Source: Patescibacteria group bacterium (lineage in GTDB: Bacteria; Patescibacteriota; Patescibacteriia; XYB2-FULL-38-15). Taken from it: DNA of 64,000 nt. Positions 5,266 through 52,204 of this stretch are shown here, piece by piece. Position 1 is the first letter of the stretch. The number at the start of each line of letters is the position of its first letter. The stretch is from assembly GCA_041653675.1 (NCBI GenBank), contig JBAZEY010000003.1:13284-77283 (forward strand). The letters run 5' to 3'. Under the pieces are notes generated by a model. The model was not told where the DNA came from. It ran no database searches and saw only the letters and a list, made by a program, of their open reading frames with translations. Both the position numbers and the translations under genes were made by a program.

Positions 5266-7905
5266 ATGAGGAGGATAATTTACACGATCGCCGCAGTTGG
5301 ATTTAGTTTTTTTCTTGGCCATGCCGTCTTGGCCGCTCGTTTTGAATTATCTCCGGCTACAACAGGATTTATTACTGGCTGTGATTCGGCAGTAAACATT
5401 GAAATTAATACCGAGGGAGAAACTTCTGATGCCGCAAATATTTTGATTCATTATAATCCCGCGCAAATTGAAATTGTTGATTCTAATCCCGCAGCGGGTG
5501 GAGTTCAAATAAGAAATGGCAATGCGTATGAAGCATATGCTGATAATATTGTTTTGCCGGCTGAAGGATTGATTCGCTTAACAGGATTTTCTTTTTTGGA
5601 ACAGCTTACCGGCCAGGCTACTTTGGGCACAATTATTTTCCGTCCGCGAGCGGGCGCGGCCGGTACGGACATCACGATAGAATATGTTGCTGGCAGCACG
5701 ACCGATAGTAATGTTGCTGAATATATAACAAGCGATGATCTTTTGACTGGCGTAACAAACGGTTCTTATACCTTCCGCGGCGGTTCTTGCGTGGCTGATG
5801 TCACGCCGCCGAATGTCACAAATCCCGATCCGACGCCAGATGAACATGATGTGCCGCTTGATTCAAATGTTACTTTTGACATTCACGACAGCCAATCAGG
5901 AGTTGATCTTGATACATTAACCATAAATGTTGACGGCGTCGTTTACACGCGAGACGGCGTAAATAGATTTTCTTTTGTCGGGACACCTGAATCGTATGCG
6001 GTAGCAATTAATCCAGATGCGGATTTTACTCCGGGTGCCACGGTTCTTGTAGAAATCAATGCAGCAGATTTATCAGGGAACGCGATGACGGCTTATCGTT
6101 ATATCTTTAATCAGCCGGCTGGACCTCCACTCATTCCGCCATCTTGTGAGGCTCTTGGTTGCGCCGCTCCCGCCGCTTGCACGGCCGAGCCGGTTCTTCC
6201 GGAAGACATTGCAGAGGAACCGACCGTTCCGGAATCACAAGCCCTAGATCTTGAAGATTTTTCTTTTTACGTGGCTGACGGCACCCTCAAAATTTATCCA
6301 ACAAGAAGCGGAGAACTTGTCACTTTATTAAATTCACCGCTTGTCTTTTCTATTTCTGAAAGTAAATTTCCACGTGAAGTAGAAAGGGTCGCTCTGACAA
6401 TGAACGGATTTTCTTACCTTTTGGGTTATAGTGATCAGGCTGACGCGCGGCAAACAACAATTCAAACGCCGCCCGGAGCTGGTCGCTTGGCATTTTCAAT
6501 TTTGATTGATTATATTGACGGAGCCCACGACAGAGTTGATGGGACGCTCAATCTTTTATCTAAAGGTTTTATTTGGCAAGGAACAACAGCCGGTAAATTA
6601 GCCGGAGCTAAAGTAACTCTTTATGAAGAGTACGCCAGCTTCCGCGTTTGGGATGCTGCTCCTTACCATCAAATCAATCCGCAAACAACTGATTCTTCTG
6701 GCCAATTTTCTTTCTTGGTTCCTCCTGGCCGTTATTATTTGCTTGTTCAAAAAGATGGATACCGCGATCAAGCTACTACGGTTTTTGAAATAGCCAACAA
6801 TGTTGTGAATCCTGGCGTGGAAATTCTTGTCGTTCCGCCGACGTTTGCCGAGGTCTGGGATCCGGCTGCGCCAGTCACGGAAAATATTCAGAATGTCGCC
6901 CAAAATATTGGTGAAAAAACAATTTATGCTACCGAAGTTATTCGTAAAGATGTTTTGGATAATCCCGAAGTAGAAAAAACAAATGAAAGCATTGCCGCGC
7001 CGGCCGTGGCCGCAGTGGCAATCGTAAGTTATGGGACAGCGATTTCTCTCGGTTCACTTTTGCCATTTTTACAATTACTTTTTACTCAACCCATCCTTCT
7101 CCTTTTTCCAAAAAGACGAAAAGGCTGGGGCATTGTTTTTCATTCTTTATCAAAAATGCCGGTGGATCTTGCGATTGTCCGGCTTTATGAAAAAGTTACC
7201 GGCCGACTCGTGCAGACTCGCGTTACCGACAAAGAAGGCCGCTTTGCTTTCTTTGTTCAGCCGGGCCAATATTTTATCAAAGTTGTTAAACCGAATTTTT
7301 CTTTCCCGACGGGATATTTAAAAAATAAAAAAGAGGATGTTAAATATTTAGATCTTTATCACGGCGAAGAGATTACAGTGACGGAAAAAAATACGCTTGT
7401 CACACCGAATATTCCGATTGATCCGGTGGAAGCGGAGCGCGGCAAACCGGATAGGAGAATTGTTCTCGCGCATTTTGGCAGAAAAGTTCAAAATGTTGCC
7501 GCCCTCTTGGGAGTTATCTTCGCTGCAATTTCAGTTTTAATTTCTCCAAAACTTTGGATGGTGGGAATTTTGATTGGCCATTGCTTGCTCTACATACTTT
7601 TCCGAAGGCTCGCTCGCAGCAGAAAACCAAAAAGCTGGGGCATTGTTTATGAAACGAAAACTAAAGCGCCGGTCGGCCTTACCGTGGCAAGAATTTTTGA
7701 AACCGAATATAACAAGTTGCTTGAAACTCAAGTTACCGATGGTCGAGGCCGTTACGCGTTCTTGGTTGGAAATAGTTCTTATTATGTGACTTTCAGCAAA
7801 CCGGGATTTTCGCCAAAACGGACGGAAACAATTGATCTCCGCGGAAGAAAAGAAGGAGCAGCAGTGGGATTGGACGTGGGGTTGGACTTAGAAAAAACAT
7901 CATAA
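5266..7905 (+). CDS. Membrane protein: N-terminal cohesin-like domain, Ig-like (Big) domain, three CarboxypepD_reg-like beta-sandwich domains and 2-3 TM segments
   Basis: Signal peptide. FELSPATTGFITGCDSAVNIEINTEGE...ILIHYNPAQIEIVDSNPAAGGVQIRNG follows the cohesin pattern (f.l.YDp..lE.v.v..G). The stretch VTPPNVTNPDPTPDEHDVPLD...TLTINVDG is Ig-like. CarboxypepD_reg-like domains are KVTLYEEYASFRVWD...SSGQFSFLVPPGRYYLLVQKDGY, and a duplicated unit KRRKGWGIVFHS...AIVRLYEKVTGRLVQTRVTDKEGRFAFFVQPGQYFIKVVKPNFSFP versus SRKPKSWGIVYET...TVARIFETEYNKLLETQVTDGRGRYAFLVGNSSYYVTFSKPGFSP. Each unit is preceded by a TM helix. Confidence 0.6.
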   Translation: MRRIIYTIAAVGFSFFLGHAVLAARFELSPATTGFITGCDSAVNIEINTEGETSDAANILIHYNPAQIEIVDSNPAAGGVQIRNGNAYEAYADNIVLPAEGLIRLTGFSFLEQLTGQATLGTIIFRPRAGAAGTDITIEYVAGSTTDSNVAEYITSDDLLTGVTNGSYTFRGGSCVADVTPPNVTNPDPTPDEHDVPLDSNVTFDIHDSQSGVDLDTLTINVDGVVYTRDGVNRFSFVGTPESYAVAINPDADFTPGATVLVEINAADLSGNAMTAYRYIFNQPAGPPLIPPSCEALGCAAPAACTAEPVLPEDIAEEPTVPESQALDLEDFSFYVADGTLKIYPTRSGELVTLLNSPLVFSISESKFPREVERVALTMNGFSYLLGYSDQADARQTTIQTPPGAGRLAFSILIDYIDGAHDRVDGTLNLLSKGFIWQGTTAGKLAGAKVTLYEEYASFRVWDAAPYHQINPQTTDSSGQFSFLVPPGRYYLLVQKDGYRDQATTVFEIANNVVNPGVEILVVPPTFAEVWDPAAPVTENIQNVAQNIGEKTIYATEVIRKDVLDNPEVEKTNESIAAPAVAAVAIVSYGTAISLGSLLPFLQLLFTQPILLLFPKRRKGWGIVFHSLSKMPVDLAIVRLYEKVTGRLVQTRVTDKEGRFAFFVQPGQYFIKVVKPNFSFPTGYLKNKKEDVKYLDLYHGEEITVTEKNTLVTPNIPIDPVEAERGKPDRRIVLAHFGRKVQNVAALLGVIFAAISVLISPKLWMVGILIGHCLLYILFRRLARSRKPKSWGIVYETKTKAPVGLTVARIFETEYNKLLETQVTDGRGRYAFLVGNSSYYVTFSKPGFSPKRTETIDLRGRKEGAAVGLDVGLDLEKTS

Positions 7906-17929: not shown

Positions 17930-18059
17930 TAATTGTAAAATTAGAGATGGAGATTAAGTGAAATTTGCTTTAAAATAAAGGATAAAGCCAATTTCAGGTG
18001 ACCTTCAACTTTTGGAGAACAACCGTTCCGCGAGAGGGCGGAACAAGGAGGATTTAGTG

Positions 18060-18665
18060 ATGAAGACGACGATGATCGCGATGGTGCTTGTTTCCGTGTT
18101 CGCGACTGGCTGCTGGGATAGCTACCAGAACTACGGCGAAGACACTTCGCCCCTCGCGACTTGCGAGGTCGAGGTGACGACGAACGTGGTCGAGGTGGTG
18201 ATCACGGTGGACGGCGTCGTGATCGGTGGCGTTGCGGAACTCGCGACGGGCATGCACACTTTCGCTGCTACGGCTCCCGGGTATTACCCGGCAAGCGTGG
18301 TTGCGGAAGTAACCGAAGCATGCGCTCCGGTCGAACTCCAGCTCTTCCCGGATCTCGCCGGTGACTACGATCTCGTGCTACACAATAGCATCTATGATCG
18401 GCTGCTGCTCCACCTCGACCAGGATGAGGAAGGCAACCTCGTCGGCTACGACTGGTACACTGATGATCCGGGACACAGCTTCCAGGATTTCACCGGCACT
18501 GTTTCGTTCGATGGAGAAGTTCATCTCCTCTCGGACGATTCGGTCCGGCTGAATCTCACTGGCCGCTGGACTCCTCCGGGAATTGGTGGCGTCAGCCGTA
18601 TCGTCGGCAACTGGACCTCCGCTGCGGGAGGCGACGGAGACTGGCTCGCCGAGTCGCGACCGTAG
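18060..18665 (+). CDS. GC-rich lipoprotein with a PEGA-like domain
   Basis: RBS AAGGAGG 10 nt upstream. Lipoprotein signal MKTTMIAMVLVSVFATGC. The segment VVITVDGVVIGGVAELATGMHTFAATAPGYYPAS fits the PEGA pattern. About 60% GC against a roughly 40% background. Confidence 0.6.
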   Translation: MKTTMIAMVLVSVFATGCWDSYQNYGEDTSPLATCEVEVTTNVVEVVITVDGVVIGGVAELATGMHTFAATAPGYYPASVVAEVTEACAPVELQLFPDLAGDYDLVLHNSIYDRLLLHLDQDEEGNLVGYDWYTDDPGHSFQDFTGTVSFDGEVHLLSDDSVRLNLTGRWTPPGIGGVSRIVGNWTSAAGGDGDWLAESRP

Positions 18666-18676
18666 GTTACGACTCG

Positions 18677-18736
18677 AACCGGCATCTGGCAGAAATCGTG
18701 AAGAACGATTCTGTCGGATGCCGGTGTTTTTATTTC
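18677..18736 (+). terminator. Long imperfect hairpin plus T-run; copy 1 of a duplicated 58-nt element
   Basis: ccggcatctggcagaaatcg tgaagaa cgattctgtcggatgccgg followed by tgtttttatttc. Near-identical to 20278-20336. Confidence 0.6.
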
Positions 18737-18834
18737 AGAAAATCTAAAGAAGCACGCCTTGACTTTTGAGACATAATATATATGATAACGGCATAGATGG
18801 TCGGCTAGAGGTAGCCGACACAAGGAGGAGAAAG

Positions 18835-20184
18835 ATGAAAAAGGGGAACGGAAGGATCAAGGGGCTCTTTTTGATCGTCATCGCGACGATCGCGATTCTC
18901 GCCTATGCCGCTTGTGGCGACGACGAGCAGTTGTGTCCCAGCGCAGGGGACTGCATGGGACGGGAGTGCGGGCCGGATCCGGTTTGCATGACATCGTGCG
19001 GTGCATGCTCAATCGGAGAAGCATGTTCGGCGGACGGGATATGTATGCCGGACTGCGTGTCCAACTGCGCCGGCCGCGAGTGCGGATGGGACCCGGTCTG
19101 CGGCAACATGTCTTGCGGGACATGCCCGGCGGATCGGCCCAACTGCAATGCCACTACGGGGACTTGTTCGACTGATGGCCCGGATTGTCCGGCAGACCGC
19201 GACTGCGCCGGCCGCGAGTGCGGCCTCGATCCAATCTGCAGCGTTTCCTGCGGGACGTGTTCGGGCGGTGAGACGTGCAGTTCATCAGGAAGATGTGTTT
19301 GCGCTCCCAACTGCTCCGGCCGCGAGTGTGGGCTTGACCCAGTTTGTAGCGTCTCCTGCGGGACGTGTTCAAGCCCAGAGACATGCACTCCATCTGGAAC
19401 GTGCAACTGTACCAGGAACTGCGCCGGCCGTGAATGTGGTCCCGATCCGATTTGTGGCGTTTCCTGCGGCTCGTGTTCAGCTGGCTCATGCACCACGACG
19501 GGCACGTGCACCACGTGTTCATCCGGCGCAACGGAGTCGTGCGCCAATCTTTGCGGTTCGGCTGGCACGCGGAGTTGTAGTGTTTCGGGCGAATGGGGGC
19601 GGTGTCAGGGTGGGACTGCTCTGGTTCCTGTGGCTCTTACGGATGACACCTACATCGACAACGACCCCCCAACTGTCAACCACGGAACCGAAGAATTCGT
19701 GATCATAGGAAAGGGCGTTGCCGCTGACCCACGTCGCCTAGCATTCTTCCGTTTTGATGCGGATTTGGATACGTGGCGGGCGGAGGGCGCCACGTCGATA
19801 ATTCAGGCCGACCTGAGCGTATACGTGAGTGACCGCTTAGGCAGTCAACTTGAACTCTATGGTCTCTCAAATACGACCGGTGGTACTTGCGTGTGGAATG
19901 AAGATACACTGACGTATTACACCCAAGTCACCGCAGGAAGCACGAACTGCTATCCGGACCCGCTTGGCTGGGTCTACCCCGACATTTCGATGATTGTGGA
20001 TTACTCGATGGGCTACGTGGATATCACGGCGTATGTCCAGTGGCTTTGGGACGGCGCGGAGAACGACGGCTTCATGTTGACGAACAATTCGGGGAGTTCC
20101 ACTCCGTTTGCACGGTTGATTATCAACAGCACCGAGAATTCCCGGGATCCACCGAGCGTTTTGGTGAGAGTATCCTGCGAATAG
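18835..20184 (+). CDS. GC-rich secreted/lipoprotein: about 7 Cys-rich repeats (C..GRECG.DP.C..SCG.CS) plus a C-terminal DNRLRE-like domain
   Basis: RBS AAGGAGGAG. Signal LFLIVIATIAILAYAAC. Repeats such as DCAGRECGLDPICSVSCGTCSGGETCSSSGRC. The C-terminal domain carries the DNRLRE-family landmarks (DDTYIDNDPPTVNHG..., RLAFFRFDADL, WNEDTLTYYT, VDITAYVQWLWDGAENDGFML, INSTENSRDPPSVLVRV). Confidence 0.6.
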   Translation: MKKGNGRIKGLFLIVIATIAILAYAACGDDEQLCPSAGDCMGRECGPDPVCMTSCGACSIGEACSADGICMPDCVSNCAGRECGWDPVCGNMSCGTCPADRPNCNATTGTCSTDGPDCPADRDCAGRECGLDPICSVSCGTCSGGETCSSSGRCVCAPNCSGRECGLDPVCSVSCGTCSSPETCTPSGTCNCTRNCAGRECGPDPICGVSCGSCSAGSCTTTGTCTTCSSGATESCANLCGSAGTRSCSVSGEWGRCQGGTALVPVALTDDTYIDNDPPTVNHGTEEFVIIGKGVAADPRRLAFFRFDADLDTWRAEGATSIIQADLSVYVSDRLGSQLELYGLSNTTGGTCVWNEDTLTYYTQVTAGSTNCYPDPLGWVYPDISMIVDYSMGYVDITAYVQWLWDGAENDGFMLTNNSGSSTPFARLIINSTENSRDPPSVLVRVSCE

Positions 20185-39087: not shown

Positions 39088-39270
39088 GGAGGTTGCCCCG
39101 TTAGAAGTCCTTGGAAAAAATTTTAATTAAAATTTTTTCGGAAGCAACGAGGTGAAATAAAATTCTCGCCATCTATTTAAGTAAAGCGTCTCTTAAATAG
39201 AGACAGACTTCTAACGGGGTTGACTTTTTTATTTTTTTGTTTCAAGATAAAGTCGCGAAAGGAGGACGCA

Positions 39271-39543
39271 ATGATGATCGGTCACCTCAAGGAGGAACTG
39301 AACGGCCCCGGGAGATATGTCTTTGGAATCTGGGATGGCACTGCCGGTTGTTACATCGGCGGAGCCGAGTGGATTGCTATCGTAACAGACGATCGTCAAA
39401 AGATGGCTGTGCGGCTTCAGGGAACGATTGACTTTTTTTCGTCGCAGGGATGTGACGGCGTGTCGAGTGACGTGCAGCGGATTATGACGCGCTACGGCGT
39501 CTCTCTATCGGAGAAGCTGAAGGTCTATCGGACCGCGAAGTGA
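39271..39543 (+). CDS. GC-rich orphan small protein (90 aa), unknown function
   Basis: RBS AAAGGAGGAcgcaATG. Composition is about 58% GC, in the spacer between uvrC and uvrA. Followed by a hairpin terminator. Confidence 0.5.
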   Translation: MMIGHLKEELNGPGRYVFGIWDGTAGCYIGGAEWIAIVTDDRQKMAVRLQGTIDFFSSQGCDGVSSDVQRIMTRYGVSLSEKLKVYRTAK

Positions 39544-39572
39544 GCCTTGGCAAACTTGCCCAGGCTCTTTTT
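39541..39572. terminator. Bidirectional terminator (serves the GC-rich gene on + and uvrA on -)
   Basis: agccttggcaaacttgcccaggct followed by ctttttttatttttt. Confidence 0.6.
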
Positions 39573-42167
39573 TTATTTTTTACTCAAGACTTTTTTCAAA
39601 TATTGTCCGGTGTATGATTTTGGATTTTTTGCCAATTCTTCCGGCGTGCCGACTGCGATAAGTTGTCCGCCGGCGTCGCCGCCATCAGGCCCTAAATCAA
39701 TAACCCAATCTGCTGTTTTAATAAAATCCAAATTGTGCTCGATAACGATAACTGTATTGCCCAAACTAACCAAGCGATGTAAAACTTCCAGCAATTTTTC
39801 CACGTCAGCATAATGCAAGCCAACAGTCGGTTCATCCAAAATATAAATTGTTCGGCCGGTAGAACGCCGGGCGAGTTCAGCGCCAAGTTTAATTCTCTGA
39901 GCTTCGCCGCCGGATAAAGTCGTCGCGGCTTGTCCAAGCGTTAAATATTGCAAACCAACTTCGCGGAGAATTTTTAGCCGATCATAAACCGGAGGGATAT
40001 TTCGGAAAAATCCTTCAGCCTCTTCAATTGTCATTTGCAAAATGTCGTGGATATTTTTTTCTTTATATTTTATGGCTAAAGTTTCCCGATCAAAACGAGT
40101 TCCCTTGCAAACTGGACAGGTAACATAAACTGCCGGCAGAAAATGCATTTCAATTTTAATTAAACCGGCGCCTTCGCAATTTTCGCAGCGTCCGCCCGGC
40201 ACGTTAAAACTAAATCGTCCCGGTTGGTAGCCGCGGGCGCGGGATTCGGGCAATGCGGTGAAAAGTTCACGAATGTGCGTCCAGGCACCGGTATAAGTTA
40301 CCGGGTTGGAGCGCGGCGTGCGGCCGATAGGAGATTGATCAATCACAATAACTTTATCTAAATAATCTAATCCTTCAATCCGGGCATGTTTTCCGATTTT
40401 CCAATTGGTATGATTTAGTTTATTGGAAAGCTCTTTATAAAGAATGTCATTTACGAGTGTGCTTTTTCCAGAGCCAGAAACGCCCGTCACGCAAACAAAT
40501 CTTTTGAGCGGAATTCTAACATCAATATTTTTTAAATTATTTTCCGTCGCCCCGACAATTTTTAATTGGCCGGAAGAAAAATATTTATTTTTTTCGTCAA
40601 CGTGTCGGCGTTTTTCCGGAATTTTTATAAATTTATCACCGCGCAAATACGCCGCGGTCAGAGAATTTTTGTCTTGTAAAACATCGGGCATCGGGCCAGC
40701 AGCGACAATTTCTCCGCCGTGCGTTCCGGCGCCGGGGCCGAGGTCAACTAAATAATCAGCCATCCAAATTGTTTCCGGATCGTGTTCCACGACAATCACC
40801 GTATTACCGATGTCGCGCAAATTCGCGAGGGTCGCCAATAATTTTTCATTATCTTTGGGATGGAGACCAATGGTCGGTTCGTCCAAAATATAGAGCGCGC
40901 CAACTAAGCGCGAGCCAACTTGCGAAGCGAGACGAATGCGTTGGGCTTCACCGCCGGAAAGAGTGCCGGCCGTGCGGCCAAGCGTTAAATATCCCAAGCC
41001 AACATTTAACATAAATTCCAGCCGGTTCATTATTTCTTTTAAAACAGTTTCCGCAATTTCAAGCTCGGTGTCATTTAATTTTTGCGTGGCCGTTTTTGAT
41101 TTTTCTTTGCCAGCCAAGGCGGTAAAAAAATCGCGCGCCTCTTCAATAGACATTTTTGTCACTTCAACAATATTTTTTTTGCCAACCAAAACATGCAAAC
41201 TTTCTTTTCTTAGTCTGTCTCCGCCGCAATCAGGACAGGGTTTTTCTGAAAATAAAGATTCAATACCAAGCCCATGGCATGTTGGGCAGGCGCCATAAGG
41301 ACTGTTGAACGAAAAAAGTCGCGGTTCAATTTCCGGAAAAGAAAAACCATCATCCGGACAAGAATATTTGGAAGACATTACAATTTCGTCGCCATTATCT
41401 AAAATAACTGTCGCGACTCCCTCCCCATGCTTTAAGGCTGTTTCCATGGCTTCGGCCAAACGCGCGCGCAGACCTTTATTATTTTCGAGCGGCCAGCCGA
41501 GCGTGATTTTGTCCACGACTAAATCAATGTTGTGCTGCTTGTAGCGGGCAAGAACAATTTTATTTCTAAGTTCTCTAAATTTTCCATTGACGCGCACTTC
41601 AGAAAATCCATCGTTATATAGATTGTATAGCAATTGATAATATTCGCCCTTTCGGCCGCGAACAACCGGCGCAAGAATCGTAAGGTGGTCGCTAAATTTT
41701 GTCGTAGGATTTTTATCCTGTTCATGAATTTCCGAAGTTTTTTTCAAAATCAAATCAACCATTTCCTCAACAGTCATTTTTTTAATTTCTTTTCCGCAGA
41801 CTGGACAATATGGTTTGCCGACGCGCGCGAAAAGCACGCGGAGGTAATCGTAAATTTCCGTGATGGTCGCGACCGTGGAGCGGGGATTGGCGCTGTGGGC
41901 TTTTTGGTCAATAGAAATGGCCGGCGACAATCCTTCAATTTCATCAACATCGGGTTTATCCATCTGACCCAAAAATTGCCGGGCGTAAGCCGAGAGTGAT
42001 TCCACATAACGCCGTTGGCCTTCGGCAAAAATGGTATCAAAAGCCAGGCTGGATTTTCCTGAACCGGAAAGTCCGGTGAAGACCGTTAATTTGTTTCGCG
42101 GAATTTCGAGAGAAACATTTTTTAGGTTATGTTCTCGCGCGCCTTTTATAATTATTTTATCTTGCAT
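39573..42167 (-). CDS. uvrA: Excinuclease ABC subunit A
   Basis: Two ABC ATPase modules ([29 protein letters not shown]), Zn fingers and LSGGE signatures. Confidence 0.95.
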
Positions 42168-42173
42168 ATATTG

Positions 42174-42202
42174 TTGACATTTTTTAATTTATTTGGAATA
42201 AT
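42174..42202 (+). promoter_or_regulatory. Sigma70-like promoter (TTGACA-17-AATAAT) driving the GC-rich element between uvrA and uvrB
   Basis: ttgaca ttttttaatttatttgg aataat. Confidence 0.45.
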
Positions 42203-42475
42203 TTTGTTATACGGTTTTGGTTTGCCACTTCGGCGAACCACCGTCCGAGGAAAGAAGGAGGTGGGAAGAACGGAGATGGAGAAGCGGTTCTCGCGGTTCG
42301 GCCTGCTGGACAAGGGCCAAGCGACGGCGCAGTCGGCGTGATGCGGTGATCCCGCTGGAGGTGAATGTCGGGGCACCCCTGACACGGGACGGAATTTCGT
42401 CGGTCAGCGGCTAACGGCCGCAACAGAAATGTGAGCCGGCGGGAAATTCTGGCAGCTCCGCAAGTCAAACCTTTC

Positions 42476-44500
42476 CTATGGCCCCGGGACGTGCTTCGGC
42501 GCGTTTCGGGGTTTTTTTAATTCTTTAATTTCATCCCGTAGTAATGCCGCCAGTTCGAATTCAAGCGCTTGCGCCGCGGCCTTCATTTGTCCTTCCTTCT
42601 CTTTTATAATTTCTTCAATATTTTTTCCTTTTTCGCCGATAACATCCAGATCCAAAATATTTTTAACTTTTTCTTTTGAAATTTCTTCGCCGACAATATC
42701 TTTTATTTTCTTTTGGATCGTCTTCGGAGTGATGCCGTGTTTTTTGTTATATTCCGTTTGTCTTTTTCTTCGGCGTTCGGTTTCGTTGATGGCGCGTTCC
42801 ATTGAGCCAGTCATTTGATCGGCATAAAGGATAACTTGGCCGCGAACATTGCGGGCTGCTCGCCCGATTGTCTGGATGAGTGAAGTTTCACTTCGCAAAA
42901 ATCCTTCTTTATCCGCGTCTAAAATTGCGACAAGCGTCACTTCCGGTAAATCCAGTCCTTCGCGCAATAAATTCACACCAACTAAAATATCAAATTTTCC
43001 TCGGCGGAATTCAGTCAAAATTTTTATCCGGTCCAATGTTTGCACTTCGCTATGAATATAATTAACTTTGAATTTTTTCTCCGCGAGATATTCGCTTAAA
43101 TCCTCGGCCATTTTTTTGGTTAGAGTTGTGACAAGGACGCGTTCGTTTCGTTTCACGCGATCGGCGATTCGTTCCATCAAATCATCAACCTGGGATTTTT
43201 CATCTTTGTTTTTTGGTGTGATAGGTTTAACAATAATTTCCGGGTCAATAAGGCCGGTTGGCCGGATTATTTGCTCAACGATTTGTCCACTTTTAGTTAA
43301 TTCATAATCAGCCGGCGTGGCTGAAGTATAAATTGTCTGTGGCACTCTTTTTTCAAATTCACTAAATTTCAGCGGCCGGTTGTCGGCGGCGGAAGGCAGG
43401 CGAAAACCAAAATCAACCAACGCCCGTTTCCGCGAAGCATCGCCTTCGTACATTCCGGAAAGCTGCGGCACGGTGACGTGTGATTCATCAATTACCATTA
43501 ACCAATCCTTATTTTTTCCAAAATAATCGAGCAAAGTTTCTGGCGGTTCGCCCGCGGCGCGGCCAGAAAGATGCCGTGAGTAATTTTCAATTCCGTGGCA
43601 GTAGCCGACCTCTTTAATCATTTCCAAATCATAATTTGTCCGACGTTCCAATCTTTCCGCTTCAAGCAATTTTCCATTTTTATTAAAATATTCCAAGCGG
43701 TCTTTTAATTCCGCTTTGATAGTTTTGAAAGCTCGTTCGCGTTCCGGGCCGAGGGTGACAAAATGTTTGGCTGGAAAAATCCAGACGTCGGTCGGTTCAT
43801 CTTTTATTTTTCTTGTCACCGGATCAATAGCAAAAATTTTCACGATTTTTTGTGCGCTTGATTCCACTCGATAAATAATTTCTTGGTTCACGGGCATTAT
43901 TTCTAAAGTTTCGCCACGCAAACGAAACTCGCCACGCTTTAAATCGGAATTTGTCCGATTGAATTGCATGGTGATGAGTTGGCTTAACAAATCAGTGCGG
44001 GTGATAACTTGATCTTTGGCCAAATGTAAAACTATTTTTTGATAAGTTTCCGGAGCACCCAAGCCGTAAATGCAAGAAACCGAAGCGACAATAATCACGT
44101 CGCGTCGTGTTAAAAGCGCCTGGGTCGCGGCGTGGCGGAGGCGATCGATCTCATCATTGATCATCGCTTCTTTTTCAATATAAGTGTCGGTCCGCGGCAA
44201 GTATGCTTCGGGCTGGTAGTAATCATAATAAGAAACAAAATATTCCACGGCATTGTCCGGAAAAAATTCGCGGAATTCATTGCAAAGTTGCGCCGCCAAA
44301 GTTTTGTTGTGAGCAATAACGAGCGTGGGTTTATTGATTTTCGCGATAACATTCGCCACGGTAAAAGTTTTTCCTGAACCAGTGACACCCAAAAGTGTTT
44401 GATGGGCGTGATTTTTTTTCAAACCATTAACAAGTTCGGCGATTGCTTTGGGCTGATCGCCGGCGGGTTTAAATTTTGATTTTAATTTGAATTTGTCCAT
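42476..44500 (-). CDS. uvrB: Excinuclease ABC subunit B
   Basis: Helicase motifs (GVTGSGKT, DESH), beta-hairpin and a C-terminal UVR domain. Confidence 0.95.
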   Translation of the reverse strand: MDKFKLKSKFKPAGDQPKAIAELVNGLKKNHAHQTLLGVTGSGKTFTVANVIAKINKPTLVIAHNKTLAAQLCNEFREFFPDNAVEYFVSYYDYYQPEAYLPRTDTYIEKEAMINDEIDRLRHAATQALLTRRDVIIVASVSCIYGLGAPETYQKIVLHLAKDQVITRTDLLSQLITMQFNRTNSDLKRGEFRLRGETLEIMPVNQEIIYRVESSAQKIVKIFAIDPVTRKIKDEPTDVWIFPAKHFVTLGPERERAFKTIKAELKDRLEYFNKNGKLLEAERLERRTNYDLEMIKEVGYCHGIENYSRHLSGRAAGEPPETLLDYFGKNKDWLMVIDESHVTVPQLSGMYEGDASRKRALVDFGFRLPSAADNRPLKFSEFEKRVPQTIYTSATPADYELTKSGQIVEQIIRPTGLIDPEIIVKPITPKNKDEKSQVDDLMERIADRVKRNERVLVTTLTKKMAEDLSEYLAEKKFKVNYIHSEVQTLDRIKILTEFRRGKFDILVGVNLLREGLDLPEVTLVAILDADKEGFLRSETSLIQTIGRAARNVRGQVILYADQMTGSMERAINETERRRKRQTEYNKKHGITPKTIQKKIKDIVGEEISKEKVKNILDLDVIGEKGKNIEEIIKEKEGQMKAAAQALEFELAALLRDEIKELKKPRNAPKHVPGP
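42482..42518 (+). terminator. Rho-independent terminator ending the GC-rich transcript (overlaps the last uvrB codons on the opposite strand)
   Basis: ccccgggacgtgcttcggcgcgtttcgggg followed by ttttttt. Confidence 0.55.
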
Positions 44501-44630: not shown

Positions 44631-44659
44631 TTGACAAATGATATTTTCTGGCCTAAGAT
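44631..44659 (+). promoter_or_regulatory. Promoter (TTGACA-17-TAAGAT) for the GC-rich cNMP-binding gene
   Basis: ttgaca aatgatattttctggcc taagat. Confidence 0.45.
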
Positions 44660-44700
44660 GGGTAATCACGAACAAAAAGGGAGGGAAGGGAGGACTGATC

Positions 44701-45555
44701 GTGAGTGAAGAAACGAATGGTTGCCAGGGTAGTGAGCCCGTGGTCGAGGACAGATCTGAAAATTGCGTCCCTGGCGTCGAAGAAGACGGGGGAAGCAGCG
44801 AAAGGCAGTGCGATACTCTTGAGGGTTTGACGCAGTCGAAGGCGCTTGCCGCTTTTCTCGGGCAGCTCAAGATTGTGGAGATCCCTCCGGGCGGACGCCT
44901 TTACCAAGAAGGCGACCTCATCTCGCAAGTCTGCTACATCGTGAGCGGCAGGGTCGAAGTCAAGGCGACCGGTGAATTGATCGCCACAGTAGAAAAGGGC
45001 GAGCTGCTTGGGCTGGAAGAATTTCGTTACCGCAAGGAGAGCCCGAAATATACCCAAGAAGCGGTAGCTGTTCTGCCAACCTCGGTTGTCTGGCTGGATA
45101 ACGAAGGCCTAAGGACAGTCTTGGACTTGAACGCGGATTGTTTGGCGGCCTACGTTCGGCTACAGGCCAGAGTGAAGAGGGCGATCGAAAAGAAGCTCGG
45201 CCAGCTCAAGATAGACAAGAGCAAGCTGGAGGTTAGGGTTGCCCGACTGGGGGTAGCTTTGGGAGCAACCCAGGAGCAGCTCGTCAAGCTGCAAAAGCCG
45301 CCGCAGCCGCCTCCACCGCCGCGCAAACCTCTTCCATCAACAGCACTTCTTGGAAAGTTGGATGAAGCGCGTCGGGTTATTCGCGAGATGGGCCAGCTTT
45401 TCGTCGCGAGGGCCACAAACCTCAAGAAACTGCTCGTGGCTTTGCACGAGTTCGCCACGAAACATCCAGACTGGGCCAAACAGGAGGATTTCGTCGCGTT
45501 CAAGAAGAGCTTCGAAGGGCTTGTAGAACGTGATTCTCAATTCAAGGTGCCGTGA
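44701..45555 (+). CDS. GC-rich cyclic-nucleotide-binding domain protein with coiled-coil and Pro-rich segment
   Basis: GTG start with RBS AGGGAGGA. cNMP-binding fold (YQEGDLISQVCYIVSGRVEVKATGELIATVEKGELLGLEEF...). PPQPPPPPRKP linker. Confidence 0.6.
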   Translation: MSEETNGCQGSEPVVEDRSENCVPGVEEDGGSSERQCDTLEGLTQSKALAAFLGQLKIVEIPPGGRLYQEGDLISQVCYIVSGRVEVKATGELIATVEKGELLGLEEFRYRKESPKYTQEAVAVLPTSVVWLDNEGLRTVLDLNADCLAAYVRLQARVKRAIEKKLGQLKIDKSKLEVRVARLGVALGATQEQLVKLQKPPQPPPPPRKPLPSTALLGKLDEARRVIREMGQLFVARATNLKKLLVALHEFATKHPDWAKQEDFVAFKKSFEGLVERDSQFKVP

Positions 45556-45693: not shown

Positions 45694-46449
45694 TTACCCG
45701 CAGCCGATTGGCGGGCACTTCACGGCAGTCCAGATTCCGAGGTTGTCGCCACTTGGCGAAACGATCGCTTCGCCCGTGACGTGCGTCTCGTCCGTAAAAT
45801 GGCCGACGTAACTTGTGCTGCCCGACGAGAAATTGATTTGCCGGCCATGGATCGTTGGCTCGTAGTAACTCGAGATGGCAGTAATGTCTCGGCCAGTTTG
45901 GCTGGCGTAGACGGCGACCGGAAAGGGGAAAGTTGCCCCGCTTAGTTCCCAGGCGCCTTCAGCGTTGATGACACTTTTCACGATGTGCGGCGCACTGCAG
46001 ACTTCCGGTTGGCAATCAACACAGCCTGCATCAATCGCCTCGCAGTCGTTCGTCACGCAAGCTGTGACAGTAGCCTCTGGTTCTGTATCACCGCCGAGGT
46101 CAAGAATGTCAGCCGTGGTTTGGACGAGCGTCATGGCTTCTCGCCGCGTTTCGATTGACGCTTCAATGGGTGCGAGACTCACAAGCGACGAATCGGAAAC
46201 GCGCCACTCCACGTCCTTGATCAGGATTCCATCGGAATTGTAGACGTAGGCGTGGAGTTTGTAGGCGTCGGCGTTCGTGGTGTCGCCGGTTGGCACGGGA
46301 GAAACGTTGGCTTCCGTGCTCGGAGTGCAATCCGAGACGATCGCCACAGCCATGGCGACACTCGAGTCGTTGGGACAGCGTTCGATGAACTCGTTCCGGC
46401 AGCCGAGCGCCATCACGAAAAGAACCGCAATCATCATCTTCGTTTTCAT
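45694..46449 (-). CDS. GC-rich lipoprotein, possibly Ig-like (Big_2-like) fold
   Basis: RBS TAAGGAGGA with promoter TTGAAA-16-TAAAAT on the minus strand. Lipoprotein signal MKTKMMIAVLFVMALGC. Multiple Cys pairs. Confidence 0.5.
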   Translation of the reverse strand: MKTKMMIAVLFVMALGCRNEFIERCPNDSSVAMAVAIVSDCTPSTEANVSPVPTGDTTNADAYKLHAYVYNSDGILIKDVEWRVSDSSLVSLAPIEASIETRREAMTLVQTTADILDLGGDTEPEATVTACVTNDCEAIDAGCVDCQPEVCSAPHIVKSVINAEGAWELSGATFPFPVAVYASQTGRDITAISSYYEPTIHGRQINFSSGSTSYVGHFTDETHVTGEAIVSPSGDNLGIWTAVKCPPIGCG

Positions 46450-46560: not shown

Positions 46561-47140
46561 TGGTCCCTTGGGAGTTATCCTCCAGATTTCTCCTTTGAAT
46601 CTCTCCCGGGAGTCCTTGGTCAGGCGCCCTTGCCCAACCTCATCGGGGAGTTAACCCCGTCTGGTAGCCCGTTTTTTCCCATCGGGCTCGGGGCGGCATT
46701 TTTAGACCGGAGTGACTGACATGCTAGCCAGCACGCGATCTTAACGAGGTAACCGCCGCTTTTCACTGCGTTTACGGCGCCGCGCTTGTGACGGCGATTG
46801 CAGCACCCCGACGGGTCTGCTGATTCTGGTCTTGGGGCGCATTCCATTTTGTCCCCAAAACTCTGGTTGCCCGTCCACCAGGGATCAGACGATTTATATT
46901 GCCGCGCCGTCTGCCAGGGCGCTTTAACCCTCCGCTCTGATCTCCTTCCCTTGGTAGCGAAGATGTGGAGCCGCCGGTTATCTACCTCAATCGAAGCACG
47001 GCTCCGATCGCGCCGTTTTGCGGGCACTGGTTATCTCCGAGCTCAAACCAATCCCGCCCCCGGGTAGACGAATTTATGTCCGCGCCAGCCTACCTTTGGC
47101 GCTCTGCCGATACATCCCCGTGCCACCACCTCCTTCTGTG
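46561..47140 (-). other. About 600-nt GC-rich non-coding block ending at the terminator
   Basis: No ORF with protein-like composition in any frame (only Arg-rich artefactual ORFs). Many local hairpins. It is contiguous with the GC-rich island and could be a structured RNA or a decayed coding remnant. Confidence 0.3.
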
Positions 47141-47473
47141 AAGAAAAACAAATTATTTATTTATCTTCATAGAAGGAAATAGGCGCAGAGAATTTTTAAG
47201 GTTAGTATAGATCTATTTTTTTGTCAAGAGTTTCGGAAAAAACAAAGAAAGGCCACTTGGCCCTCCTTGTTAATATATTTTAATATTAACTTTAAGAACA
47301 GCAGGAACAGCCTTTTAATCTCTTCGTGTGCTTCCGCAATTCTTTGCCCTTTTTGGTATTTTTAAGAGCGTGTTTTGTTCTGGCTTTCGCCGCGCTATTT
47401 TGTCCCATATTATTTAACTATTAATGATTTAATGAATTAATTTTGTCATATTGTCGGTAAGTCGTCAACTCCA

Positions 47474-48297: not shown

Positions 48298-48390
48298 AAA
48301 TTTTTAGAAATAAAAGGTAGCCCCACGAAGGCTGCTTTTTATTTTGCAAAAGATATTGACAAAAAGAGTCGGAGGTGTTAAAACAAAAAC

Positions 48391-48550
48391 GGTGAGGCGA
48401 CTGTGTCCTTGGCTTACTACGTAAGACCGGGGCGGTCGAGGACCAAGCCGCGCGCGGCTAACTCACGAGGGCGGATCGGATGTGGTCCCGCGACTCCTCC
48501 ACGACGGGGTGTGCAGTTCTAGACAACCTGCCCCCCGTCACTTTTTTTTA
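48391..48550 (+). ncRNA. Candidate small RNA (about 160 nt, GC-rich) with its own promoter and terminator; class unknown
   Basis: Promoter TTGACA(48356)-17-TAAAAC. Nested hairpins. Terminator gacggggtgtgcag...ctgccccccgtc plus T8. No plausible ORF or RBS. Confidence 0.35.
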
Positions 48551-48595
48551 TCAAAAAAACGCTCCGATCACCTCGGGGCGTTTTTGTTTAAAAAT

Positions 48596-51585: not shown

Positions 51586-51650
51586 TATTTCCCAAAACCA
51601 AAACACCTCCAGCAAAGGAGATGTTTTAGTGGGGTCGCGTAGTGGAGGTT
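51586..51650 (-). terminator. Copy 1 of a duplicated terminator element (conserved flanks, compensatory stem changes)
   Basis: tatttcccaaaaccaaaacacctcc...tagtggggt is shared with 52087-52133. The stem is acatctcctttgctggaggtgt here versus acacctctctaaaaggaggtgt in copy 2. Confidence 0.5.
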
Positions 51651-51781
51651 GTTAGAACTTTTTTCGGGGATAAGCAATTTTCCATTCCTTGCTTGGAGGA
51701 ATATCTTGACAGAAAAATTTTTGTATGTTAATTTAACCTGTCCATCCGAAATTAAGGTCGGTTGAGGATAAGGAGGGCAAC

Positions 51782-52036
51782 ATGAGGCTCCGTGAAGTGC
51801 GAATCGGGATGCGGGTGAAAGTGACGCGGCTCGGAAGCACGGAAGGCATGGCCGTTAAGCCAAAATATCTGCAGGCACGCCGACTTGGCGCTCGCGGCAA
51901 GATCATGAACTACATCGCCGGCCACGGTGGCGATTGTTGGTGGATCCGGCATGACGACGGAACGATCGGCGGCTACGGCTACATGGAATTCCAGCGCGTC
52001 CGGTCAAAGCGTCGGACCGGGGAGCGGACCAAGTAG
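51782..52036 (+). CDS. GC-rich small protein (84 aa), SH3/KOW-like and possibly DUF1918-like
   Basis: RBS TAAGGAGGG. Motifs IGMRVKVTRLG...GKIMNYIAGHGGDCWWIRHDDGTIGGY. About 62% GC. Terminator at 52055-52090. Confidence 0.5.
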   Translation: MRLREVRIGMRVKVTRLGSTEGMAVKPKYLQARRLGARGKIMNYIAGHGGDCWWIRHDDGTIGGYGYMEFQRVRSKRRTGERTK

Positions 52037-52129
52037 CCGCATACTTCACGCAGTTAGACCTCTGCAGAACAAAAGGTCTTTTTTTTATTTCCCAAAACCA
52101 AAACACCTCCTTTTAGAGAGGTGTTCTAG

Positions 52130-52204
52130 TGGGGTGGCTACTGGGAGTTGAACCCAGGCTAGCGGGACCACAACCCGCTGTTCTACCGTTAAACTATAGC
52201 CACC
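52130..52204 (-). tRNA. tRNA-His (GTG) with encoded G-1 and CCA
   Basis: G-1 pairs with C73. Acceptor GTGGCTA/TAGCCAC. Anticodon loop TTGTGGT. T-arm CTGGG TTCAACT CCCAG. Confidence 0.85.

Follow-up and report, generated by a model that had tools for sequence, protein, structure and literature searches.

Predicted RNA gene with an embedded mini-ORF at the uvrB–uvrA junction of a small Patescibacteria clade

The subject of this work is a short GC-rich unit between two genes of a uvr operon in a 64-kb stretch of DNA, here called the window, from a Patescibacteria group bacterium (assembly GCA_041653675.1, contig JBAZEY010000003.1; all coordinates are positions within the window). The operon lies on the minus strand in the order uvrB, uvrA, uvrC, and both of its spacers carry GC-rich inserts on the plus strand. 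The unit separates uvrB (42476–44500, minus strand, 674 amino acids) from uvrA (39573–42167, minus strand, 864 amino acids), which is without a Shine-Dalgarno (SD) sequence and without a recognizable promoter of its own. Among 80 GTDB species representatives, the nearest homologues of UvrB belong to Magasanikbacteria and Uhrbacteria, at 66–67% identity. Closer relatives were sampled as fetched contigs, chosen through close UvrB homologues and denoted by L numbers (L082–L097). Its features indicate that the unit is a separate predicted RNA gene, opposite in direction to the operon.

The promoter-to-terminator unit

A sigma-70-type promoter is predicted at 42174–42202 on the plus strand, with TTGACA at 42174–42179 and AATAAT at 42197–42202 separated by 17 nucleotides (nt). 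The latter box is preceded by TG, giving an extended −10 element. The promoter scores 11 out of 12, a value reached by just two sites in the 6 kb scanned, and only 7 nt lie between it and the uvrA start codon on the opposite strand. The predicted transcript of about 310 nt (42209–42520, plus strand) has its start inferred from the −10 box and its end from the T-run of an intrinsic terminator at 42480–42520. This terminator, by far the strongest found by a terminator scan of the region, consists of a hairpin (42480–42513; 15-bp stem with nine GC pairs) and a U-tract (42514–42520, T7). Because the uvrB stop codon TAG occupies 42478–42476, hairpin and T-run fall within the last 13 codons of uvrB, which are thus antisense to the terminator. 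Lys codons close to the uvrB end are complementary to the U-tract, and the final 45 nt of the predicted RNA overlap the uvrB coding end, where the RNA would be cis-antisense to uvrB. The GC content is 0.595–0.64 over 42200–42499, compared to 43% for the window overall. An earlier note on this DNA had proposed the TTGACA-17-AATAAT promoter, the terminator inside uvrB and about 300 nt of high GC content between them, and all three are borne out. The fold of the plus strand, at −137 kcal/mol, is better than those of 100 out of 100 dinucleotide shuffles (z = −3.25). Having its own promoter and terminator, the unit qualifies at the level of sequence as an independent transcription unit.

Searches against known RNA families gave no assignment. 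With Rfam 15 at gathering thresholds only three tRNAs were detected in the whole window, and for 42100–42600 an E-value limit of 10 yielded chance-level matches only, the best having E = 1.1 and 17 bits against a cut-off of 65 bits. ARAGORN found no transfer-messenger RNA (tmRNA). Nothing similar to the unit was present in phage, plasmid and IMG/VR collections, no homologue of it was found beside uvrB in the 80 GTDB species representatives, and searches with profiles and with covariance models, among them one of the 5′ module and one of the junction domain, revealed no further copy, either in the window or among about 100 loci that were fetched. A pattern scan of metagenomes returned three contigs only, one of them previously known. 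Outside the unit, a model of its 5′ module (R1) had only a weak match, to a module of SD box and AUG at 47109–47149 (E = 0.004). The predicted RNA matches no Rfam family and is a putative lineage-specific structured RNA with an embedded small open reading frame (mini-ORF).

A conserved long ORF was not found in the unit in any frame on either strand. An ORF of 94 codons that fills the spacer on the minus strand was considered as a protein gene and rejected, as it is interrupted in L082, L086 and L091 and looks like antisense noise.

Structure, ribosome-binding signals and the mini-ORF

Eight distinct versions of the unit were found, all at the same site and with the same orientation, in genomes whose UvrB proteins are 86–95% identical: those of the window, L082/83/93, L084, L085/92, L086 (carried by the complete genome OZ246416.1), L087/88, L091 and L097. 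The promoter is kept in all eight members, and the homology to the relatives spans the whole length of the unit.

All predicted RNA features lie on the plus strand. The 5′-terminal hairpin P1 (42211–42244) has the form ACGG-UUU-UGGUUUGCC ... GGCGAACCA-CCGU, and its pairs over the eight sequences comprise 87 Watson-Crick pairs, 15 G-U pairs and 1 A-C. A possible LexA site (Cheo-box-like, CGAAC-N4-GTCCG) was noticed by eye in P1 and discarded; it is imperfect, its palindrome is not conserved in L087, and uvrB has no box of this kind upstream. Downstream of P1 follow SD1, AAGGAGGUG (42255–42263), invariant and complementary over its 9 nt to the 16S anti-SD, and the mini-ORF MEKRFSRFGLLDKGQATAQSA (42276–42341; 21 codons and UGA). 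A second conserved SD-like box, SD2 or GGAGGUGA (42357–42364), is positioned 15–21 nt past the stop of the mini-ORF. No conserved start codon or ORF was found after SD2 in the members; the terminator follows instead. The hairpin Pa (42367–42383; GUCGGGG-CA-CCCCUGAC) shows a compensating change from G-C to A-U in L086. An alternative in which GGGG pairs with GCUCC/GCCCU past the junction and CCC with GGG fits the few changes equally well. An invariant UGACA lies between Pa and a three-way junction (42390–42451), in which a Pd/Pe stem encloses Pb (42407–42421) and Pc with a GAAA tetraloop (42423–42432). The pyrimidine tract CCUUUCCU (42470–42477), located just 5′ of the terminator and overlapping the uvrB stop codon, is the predicted partner of the SD1 region.

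All eight sequences were realigned to a covariance model comprising SD2, Pa and the junction. In this alignment 12 of the 29 pairs of the 3′ domain have changes on both sides. Paired cells amount to 87.6% in this domain, compared to 36–47% if partners are slid by 1–3 columns, and none of 500 column shuffles reached the observed covariation. The stem Pd, for example, occurs as CGGAG/CUCCG, CGGAA/UUCUG, UGAAG/CUUCA and CUGAAG/CUUCAG, and the architecture of the junction is the same in L084 and L097 despite a largely different sequence. The junction domain contains G-U and A-C cells in a ratio of 30:5, the terminators include 32 G-U pairs as well as compensatory changes from C-G to U-A, and the minimum free energy (MFE) of the plus strand is 16–46 kcal/mol below that of the minus strand in every member. 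On account of the G-U excess and the folding energies the structure is assigned to the plus strand. According to the covariation and this strand test, the unit has conserved structure outside its ORF, as dual-function small RNAs (sRNAs) do. The suggestion in the earlier note that the unit encodes a structured RNA is well supported by the conservation from promoter to terminator in the eight relatives, by the compensated pairs and by the G-U ratio.

In seven of the eight MFE folds SD1 is paired with the 3′ pyrimidine tract, and SD2 finds a similar partner if the 3′ half is folded alone. The purine strand of these pairings is invariant and the pyrimidine strand varies freely, which would fit a constraint on the SD strand that stems from something other than the helix, most simply from 16S rRNA.

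An ORF of 16–24 codons is present in all eight members and ends in UGA in each of them; SD1 and the AUG at 42276 are invariant. The length differences between recognizable blocks of the ORF are all multiples of three (indels of 3, 6 and 9 nt), with blocks of 12 versus 15 nt, blocks of 18, 24 and 27 nt, and a 9-nt indel in the comparison of the window with L085. By our estimate the chance of finding only in-frame differences without a frame constraint is roughly 1–4%. The peptides contain motifs that are shared within subgroups (FSRFG…TAQ and FFVRS…RGPP..SS). All eight are hydrophilic and basic, with a grand average of hydropathy (GRAVY) between −0.19 and −1.23 and a net charge of +2 to +5, and for that reason they do not resemble type I toxins. 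The 21-codon ORF with a ribosome-binding site that had been pointed out before is present at 42276–42341, and the proposed site AAGGAGGTG at 42255–42263, with a long spacing between them. The accompanying idea of a small-peptide gene is moderately supported: the invariant SD1 and AUG, the ORF in every member and the in-frame indels argue for it, and the unconstrained peptide and the spacing argue against it. In our reading the frame is probably translated, and selection would act on translation or ribosome binding, not on the peptide.

Distribution, insertion and other GC-rich units

In L094 (UvrB 85% identical) and L096 (75%) the site is empty and uvrB and uvrA abut or overlap (…ELKRKK* TCGT ATG…), while L095 (80%) has an unrelated 100-nt spacer at the junction of the two genes. 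Because uvrB and uvrA abut in relatives at 85% and 75% UvrB identity, the unit is, judged from these loci, a lineage-specific insertion limited to one small Patescibacteria clade. Absence or lack of conservation of the spacer in relatives had been named in the earlier note as a ground for refutation; here the outcome is mixed, with conservation in eight close relatives and absence at 85% and 75% UvrB identity. The insertion lies exactly at the gene junction, with the last uvrB Lys codons on one side and the uvrA ATG on the other, and the right border of the unit is the Lys-codon run at the uvrB end, from which the terminator U-tract originates. Carriers of the RNA gene have UvrB C-terminal tails of 7–25 residues (e.g. 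KKPRNAPKHVPGP and KKPRNAPNGTPRGLEERAKKFTT) that are the antisense translation of the RNA terminator and 3′ region; in the window 13 residues were added. A search for direct repeats or target-site duplications flanking the unit gave only AT-rich chance matches. The sequence of the unit evolves far faster than UvrB, and within it the ORF is much less conserved than the rest.

Two further observations concern the flanks. In a comparison of UvrB homologues (P0001–P0028), those ending in KKKK or KKKR may be insert-free, which is confirmed only in L094 (tail KRKK). In L087/L088 an extra AT-rich ORF of 98 codons on the uvr strand (5853–6149, plus strand of the locus) is located between the RNA promoter and uvrA, and stops 4 nt ahead of the uvrA start. 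The RNA gene therefore stays with the uvrB end and not with the uvrA start.

The genome is a compositional mosaic. Two classes of genes occur in the window: AT-rich core genes that mostly have no SD, and GC-rich units with strong promoters, SDs and terminators. The SD is missing in most of the core genes, including uvrA, and the sole SD-like signal of uvrB is a GGAGG 24 nt upstream of the start. The SD-led GC-rich genes at 39271 (90 amino acids), 45694–46449 (251 amino acids) and 51782 (84 amino acids) have GGAGG 5–6 nt before the start codon. Several larger genes, too, have 55–60% GC, namely those at 18012–20184, 44638–45555 and 45694–46449.

The insert in the uvrA–uvrC spacer (39220–39572, plus strand) has its own promoter, a well-placed SD, an ORF of 90 codons (39271–39543) and a terminator. 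Relatives have a gene for 87–93 amino acids at the same position, with 19–26% identity where UvrB is about 90% identical. The 90-residue protein has no Pfam match, a word-based search returned only the protein itself, and its AlphaFold model is unusable (predicted local distance difference test score, pLDDT, of 44). The statement in the earlier note that both uvr spacers carry such inserts is correct as to GC content and strand, but the insert between uvrA and uvrC is a fast-evolving protein gene and not another RNA of this type.

Other GC-rich units are found further away. A GC-rich, RNA-like region on the minus strand, from about 47226 to 46450, has a TTGACA...TATACT promoter, an AT-rich leader and no Rfam match. 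It opens with the same module as the unit, GAAGGAGGUGG-N11-AUG. The box of this module, AGAAGGAGGTGG, forms a long hairpin with a CU-rich strand upstream of it, and the AUG 11 nt past AGAAGGAGGTGG opens an ORF of 13–14 codons (MYRQSAKGRLART). In the L087 counterpart the frame is shifted, yet the conserved hairpin GCGCCA...UGGCGC persists. Between this part and the conserved gene at 45694–46449, which has no Pfam match, run more than 500 nt rich in GC, and a 135-codon 'ORF' at 46620–47027 is not called in relatives. On the plus strand at 48350–48560, some 170 GC-rich nt (69% GC at most) lie between a TTGACA promoter and a terminator of the form GACGGGG...CCCCCGTCAC and T8. This region has no Rfam match at gathering thresholds and its fold is not clearly above shuffles (z = −1.29); it may represent the gene of a small RNA. 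The 84-amino-acid gene (51782–52036, plus strand; 61% GC) lies in a segment at 51586–52138 and has a promoter, a well-placed SD and a terminator of its own. Two copies of a 53-nt direct repeat, 83% identical and 500 nt apart, flank it, the second reaching into the 3′ end of tRNA-His (52130–52203, minus strand). With its repeats at a tRNA gene, the arrangement resembles the attachment-site signature left by a small integrated cassette.

In the Falkowbacteria contigs L089/L090 (5604–6784; UvrB 78% identical) the uvrB–uvrA spacer measures 1.18 kb and contains two tandem GC-rich units, again opposite to the uvr genes. Their promoters are near-identical (TTGACA[G/A]CTTTTTAATATATATAT...), and each unit has a 5′ hairpin, a purine-rich box, an ORF of 16–17 codons and a terminator. 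No Rfam match was found for these units, and neither resembles the RNA described here.

Possible modes of action

The mode of action that we favor, tentatively and with somewhat less than even confidence, is a composite one: a clade-restricted, autonomous RNA gene with a probably translated mini-ORF, a trans-acting junction and a positional damping of uvrA. The mini-ORF would be translated, and the act of translation or of ribosome binding would matter rather than the peptide. Closure of the molecule by the 3′ pyrimidine tract and the purine-rich SD boxes could gate the access of ribosomes. The 5′ hairpin together with a bound 30S subunit or ribosome may stabilize the RNA, as 5′ stabilizers do in Gram-positive bacteria. 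The three-way junction would offer a docking place for a protein or a further RNA and in this way carry the trans activity. Judged from its position, the RNA would also be fully complementary to any transcript reading through from uvrB to uvrA. On the minus strand the terminator hairpin is not followed by a U-tract. Because of these missing U's, and because uvrA has no SD or promoter, expression of uvrA would depend on uvrB transcripts running on through the antisense of the RNA gene and up against its strong convergent promoter. If uvrA relies on such read-through past a convergent promoter, the unit should uncouple and dampen uvrA expression.

Of the known systems, the dual-function sRNAs would come nearest to the unit in their way of working, and some of its traits recall SD-sequestered toxin mRNAs and ermC-type leaders. 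Dual-function sRNAs include S. aureus RNAIII/hld, E. coli SgrS/SgrT and B. subtilis SR1/SR1P. Like these, the unit stands alone, is a few hundred nt long and has structure outside a short SD-led ORF. It shares no sequence or structure homology with them, and its peptide is unconstrained, unlike the conserved SgrT, SR1P and delta-haemolysin. Long-distance sequestration of the SD is known from type I toxin mRNAs such as hok/Sok, H. pylori aapA1/IsoA1 and the SOS-linked tisB/IstR-1 and dinQ/agrB. The short ORF in a folded mRNA, the predicted pairing of the SD with a distal pyrimidine tract and the patchy intergenic presence recall these systems, but the peptides of the unit are not membrane helices, an antitoxin promoter was not found and the family is single-copy. 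Translation-attenuation leaders of the ermC and cat type, as generally described, likewise have an SD corresponding to SD1, a leader ORF of about 20 codons and a second SD beside a hairpin. In the unit, however, SD2 has neither a following gene nor a conserved start, and the terminator and then the convergent uvrB come next. The Gram-positive 5′ stabilizers, commonly exemplified by cryIIIA STAB-SD and the aprE and ermC stem-loops, also combine a 5′ hairpin with SD-like boxes, which in the unit are ill-placed (SD1) or unplaced (SD2). Their SD boxes, by contrast, sit in mRNA leaders of long genes. In cis-antisense or 'excludon'-type arrangements, as usually understood, a unit is similarly transcribed against an operon; the present one overlaps the uvrB 3′ end and the whole uvrB–uvrA spacer. 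It differs by having its own conserved structure and ribosome-binding signals.

Several points weigh against the composite reading. Substitutions in the ORF show no third-position bias, and between L087 and L097 seven codons differ non-synonymously and one synonymously. A stretch this rich in GC would, by our estimate, stay open for at least 16 codons by chance in about 60% of cases. The GGAGG core of SD1 and the AUG are separated by 13–14 nt in seven members and by 10 nt in the eighth, L086, distances well beyond those of the SD-led genes of the window. With this long spacing SD1 may bind the 30S subunit without starting translation. The energy of the duplex between SD1 and the pyrimidine tract is no better than with shuffled tracts and its register is not conserved; since shuffled tracts pair equally well, the support for this pairing is compositional only. 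The covariation comes from just eight related sequences, in an alignment fitted to the model on which pairs were counted. Finally, the RNA is missing from relatives with 85% UvrB identity, which shows that it is dispensable.

A less probable alternative, though the best placed of the others, is a pure cis-antisense or transcription-interference device that would set uvrA levels by means of the strong convergent promoter and a 300-bp duplex with the uvrB–uvrA intercistronic RNA. Mini-ORF and structure would then be secondary, serving stability or as kissing loops. The position of the unit agrees with this: it is always opposite to the uvr strand at the uvrB/uvrA junction, its promoter is next to the ATG of a gene that lacks SD and promoter, the missing minus-strand U-tract should let uvrB transcripts read through, and this junction of the Falkowbacteria relative likewise carries two GC-rich units, unrelated to the one described here, in the orientation opposite to uvr. 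Such a device, however, needs no invariant SD and AUG, no frame-conserved ORF and no covarying three-way junction. Moreover, the 5′ end of the RNA is about 42 nt upstream of the uvrA ATG, which leaves the ribosome-binding region of uvrA uncovered.

Slightly less probable again is a small-protein gene in which the basic peptide of 16–24 residues is the product and the remainder a structured 3′ untranslated region that controls stability and translation. The strong SD, the invariant AUG, the ORF with in-frame indels and UGA throughout, and the subgroup motifs would be expected of such a gene. Yet the comparison of L087 and L097 gives no indication of purifying selection on the peptide, the third-position bias is missing, the parts outside the ORF are much better conserved than the ORF itself, and the spacing of the SD is poor.

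An unlikely but broader option is that the unit belongs to a class of GC-rich cassettes with own promoter, SD and terminator that colonize AT-rich junctions in bacteria of the candidate phyla radiation (CPR), and that it acts as a self-gated 30S-binding regulator or sponge. The two invariant 9–10-nt boxes complementary to the anti-SD and the internal pyrimidine 'anti-SD' tract would then engage the 30S subunit itself, in a genome where most core genes have no SD. The second GAAGGAGGUGG module, the Falkowbacteria units and the repeat-flanked 84-amino-acid cassette agree with such a wider class.

We consider it more unlikely still that the unit is a selfish module of the type I toxin–antitoxin kind, with the mRNA of a toxic mini-peptide silenced by 5′–3′ sequestration of the SD. 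The short ORF in a highly structured mRNA, the predicted pairing of SD1 with the tract, the presence/absence polymorphism of the insertion and the fast evolution would suit such a module. The hydrophobic peptide and the antisense antitoxin with its own promoter that mark type I systems are both lacking in the unit: the peptides are hydrophilic and basic and form no hydrophobic helix, and there is no minus-strand promoter inside the transcribed part, the sole nearby minus-strand site (42180–42151) running into the uvrA coding sequence. The only conceivable antisense transcript is therefore uvrB read-through. The unit is also single-copy, with nothing similar in plasmids or phages.

That the unit consists of functionless GC-rich DNA, left over from a foreign source or a decayed gene and lying between chance promoter- and terminator-like sequences, is very improbable. 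The window does contain many GC-rich patches of likely foreign origin, and the middle of the unit is poorly conserved, but promoter, P1, SD1, AUG, SD2, compensating helices and terminator are kept where the 90-amino-acid neighbour falls to 19–26% identity.

Least probable of all is a housekeeping RNA (6S, RNase P, signal recognition particle RNA or tmRNA) so divergent that the Rfam models miss it in CPR bacteria, since against the strong constitutive-looking promoter, the high structure, the size of about 300 nt and the detection of no housekeeping RNA except tRNAs in the 64-kb window stand the lack of any Rfam match even at E = 10, the negative ARAGORN result, a combination of SD, ORF and three-way junction that fits none of these RNAs, its absence from this locus in relatives at 75–85% UvrB identity and an evolution far faster than that of UvrB. 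In an inspection by eye for these RNAs, GAGGAAAG and ACAGAA resembled conserved regions of RNase P; the P4 complementarity is absent and the covariance models were unmatched, and the assignment was rejected.

To our knowledge, almost no regulatory RNAs have been characterized in CPR bacteria/Patescibacteria, which have tiny genomes. A predicted RNA of about 310 nt with a strong promoter and covariation, outside Rfam, is a concrete and testable candidate in this phylum, of which the significance is tempered by the narrow distribution and by its dispensability in close relatives. The unit also shows how such genes may arise, by exact insertion at a translationally coupled junction with reuse of uvrB Lys codons as a U-tract. 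If it is merely an antisense brake on uvrA, it would be an ordinary but neat rewiring of an operon by insertion. If the mini-ORF and both SD boxes engage ribosomes, it would represent a compact natural example of a ribosome-gated RNA, in a setting where most core genes dispense with the SD.

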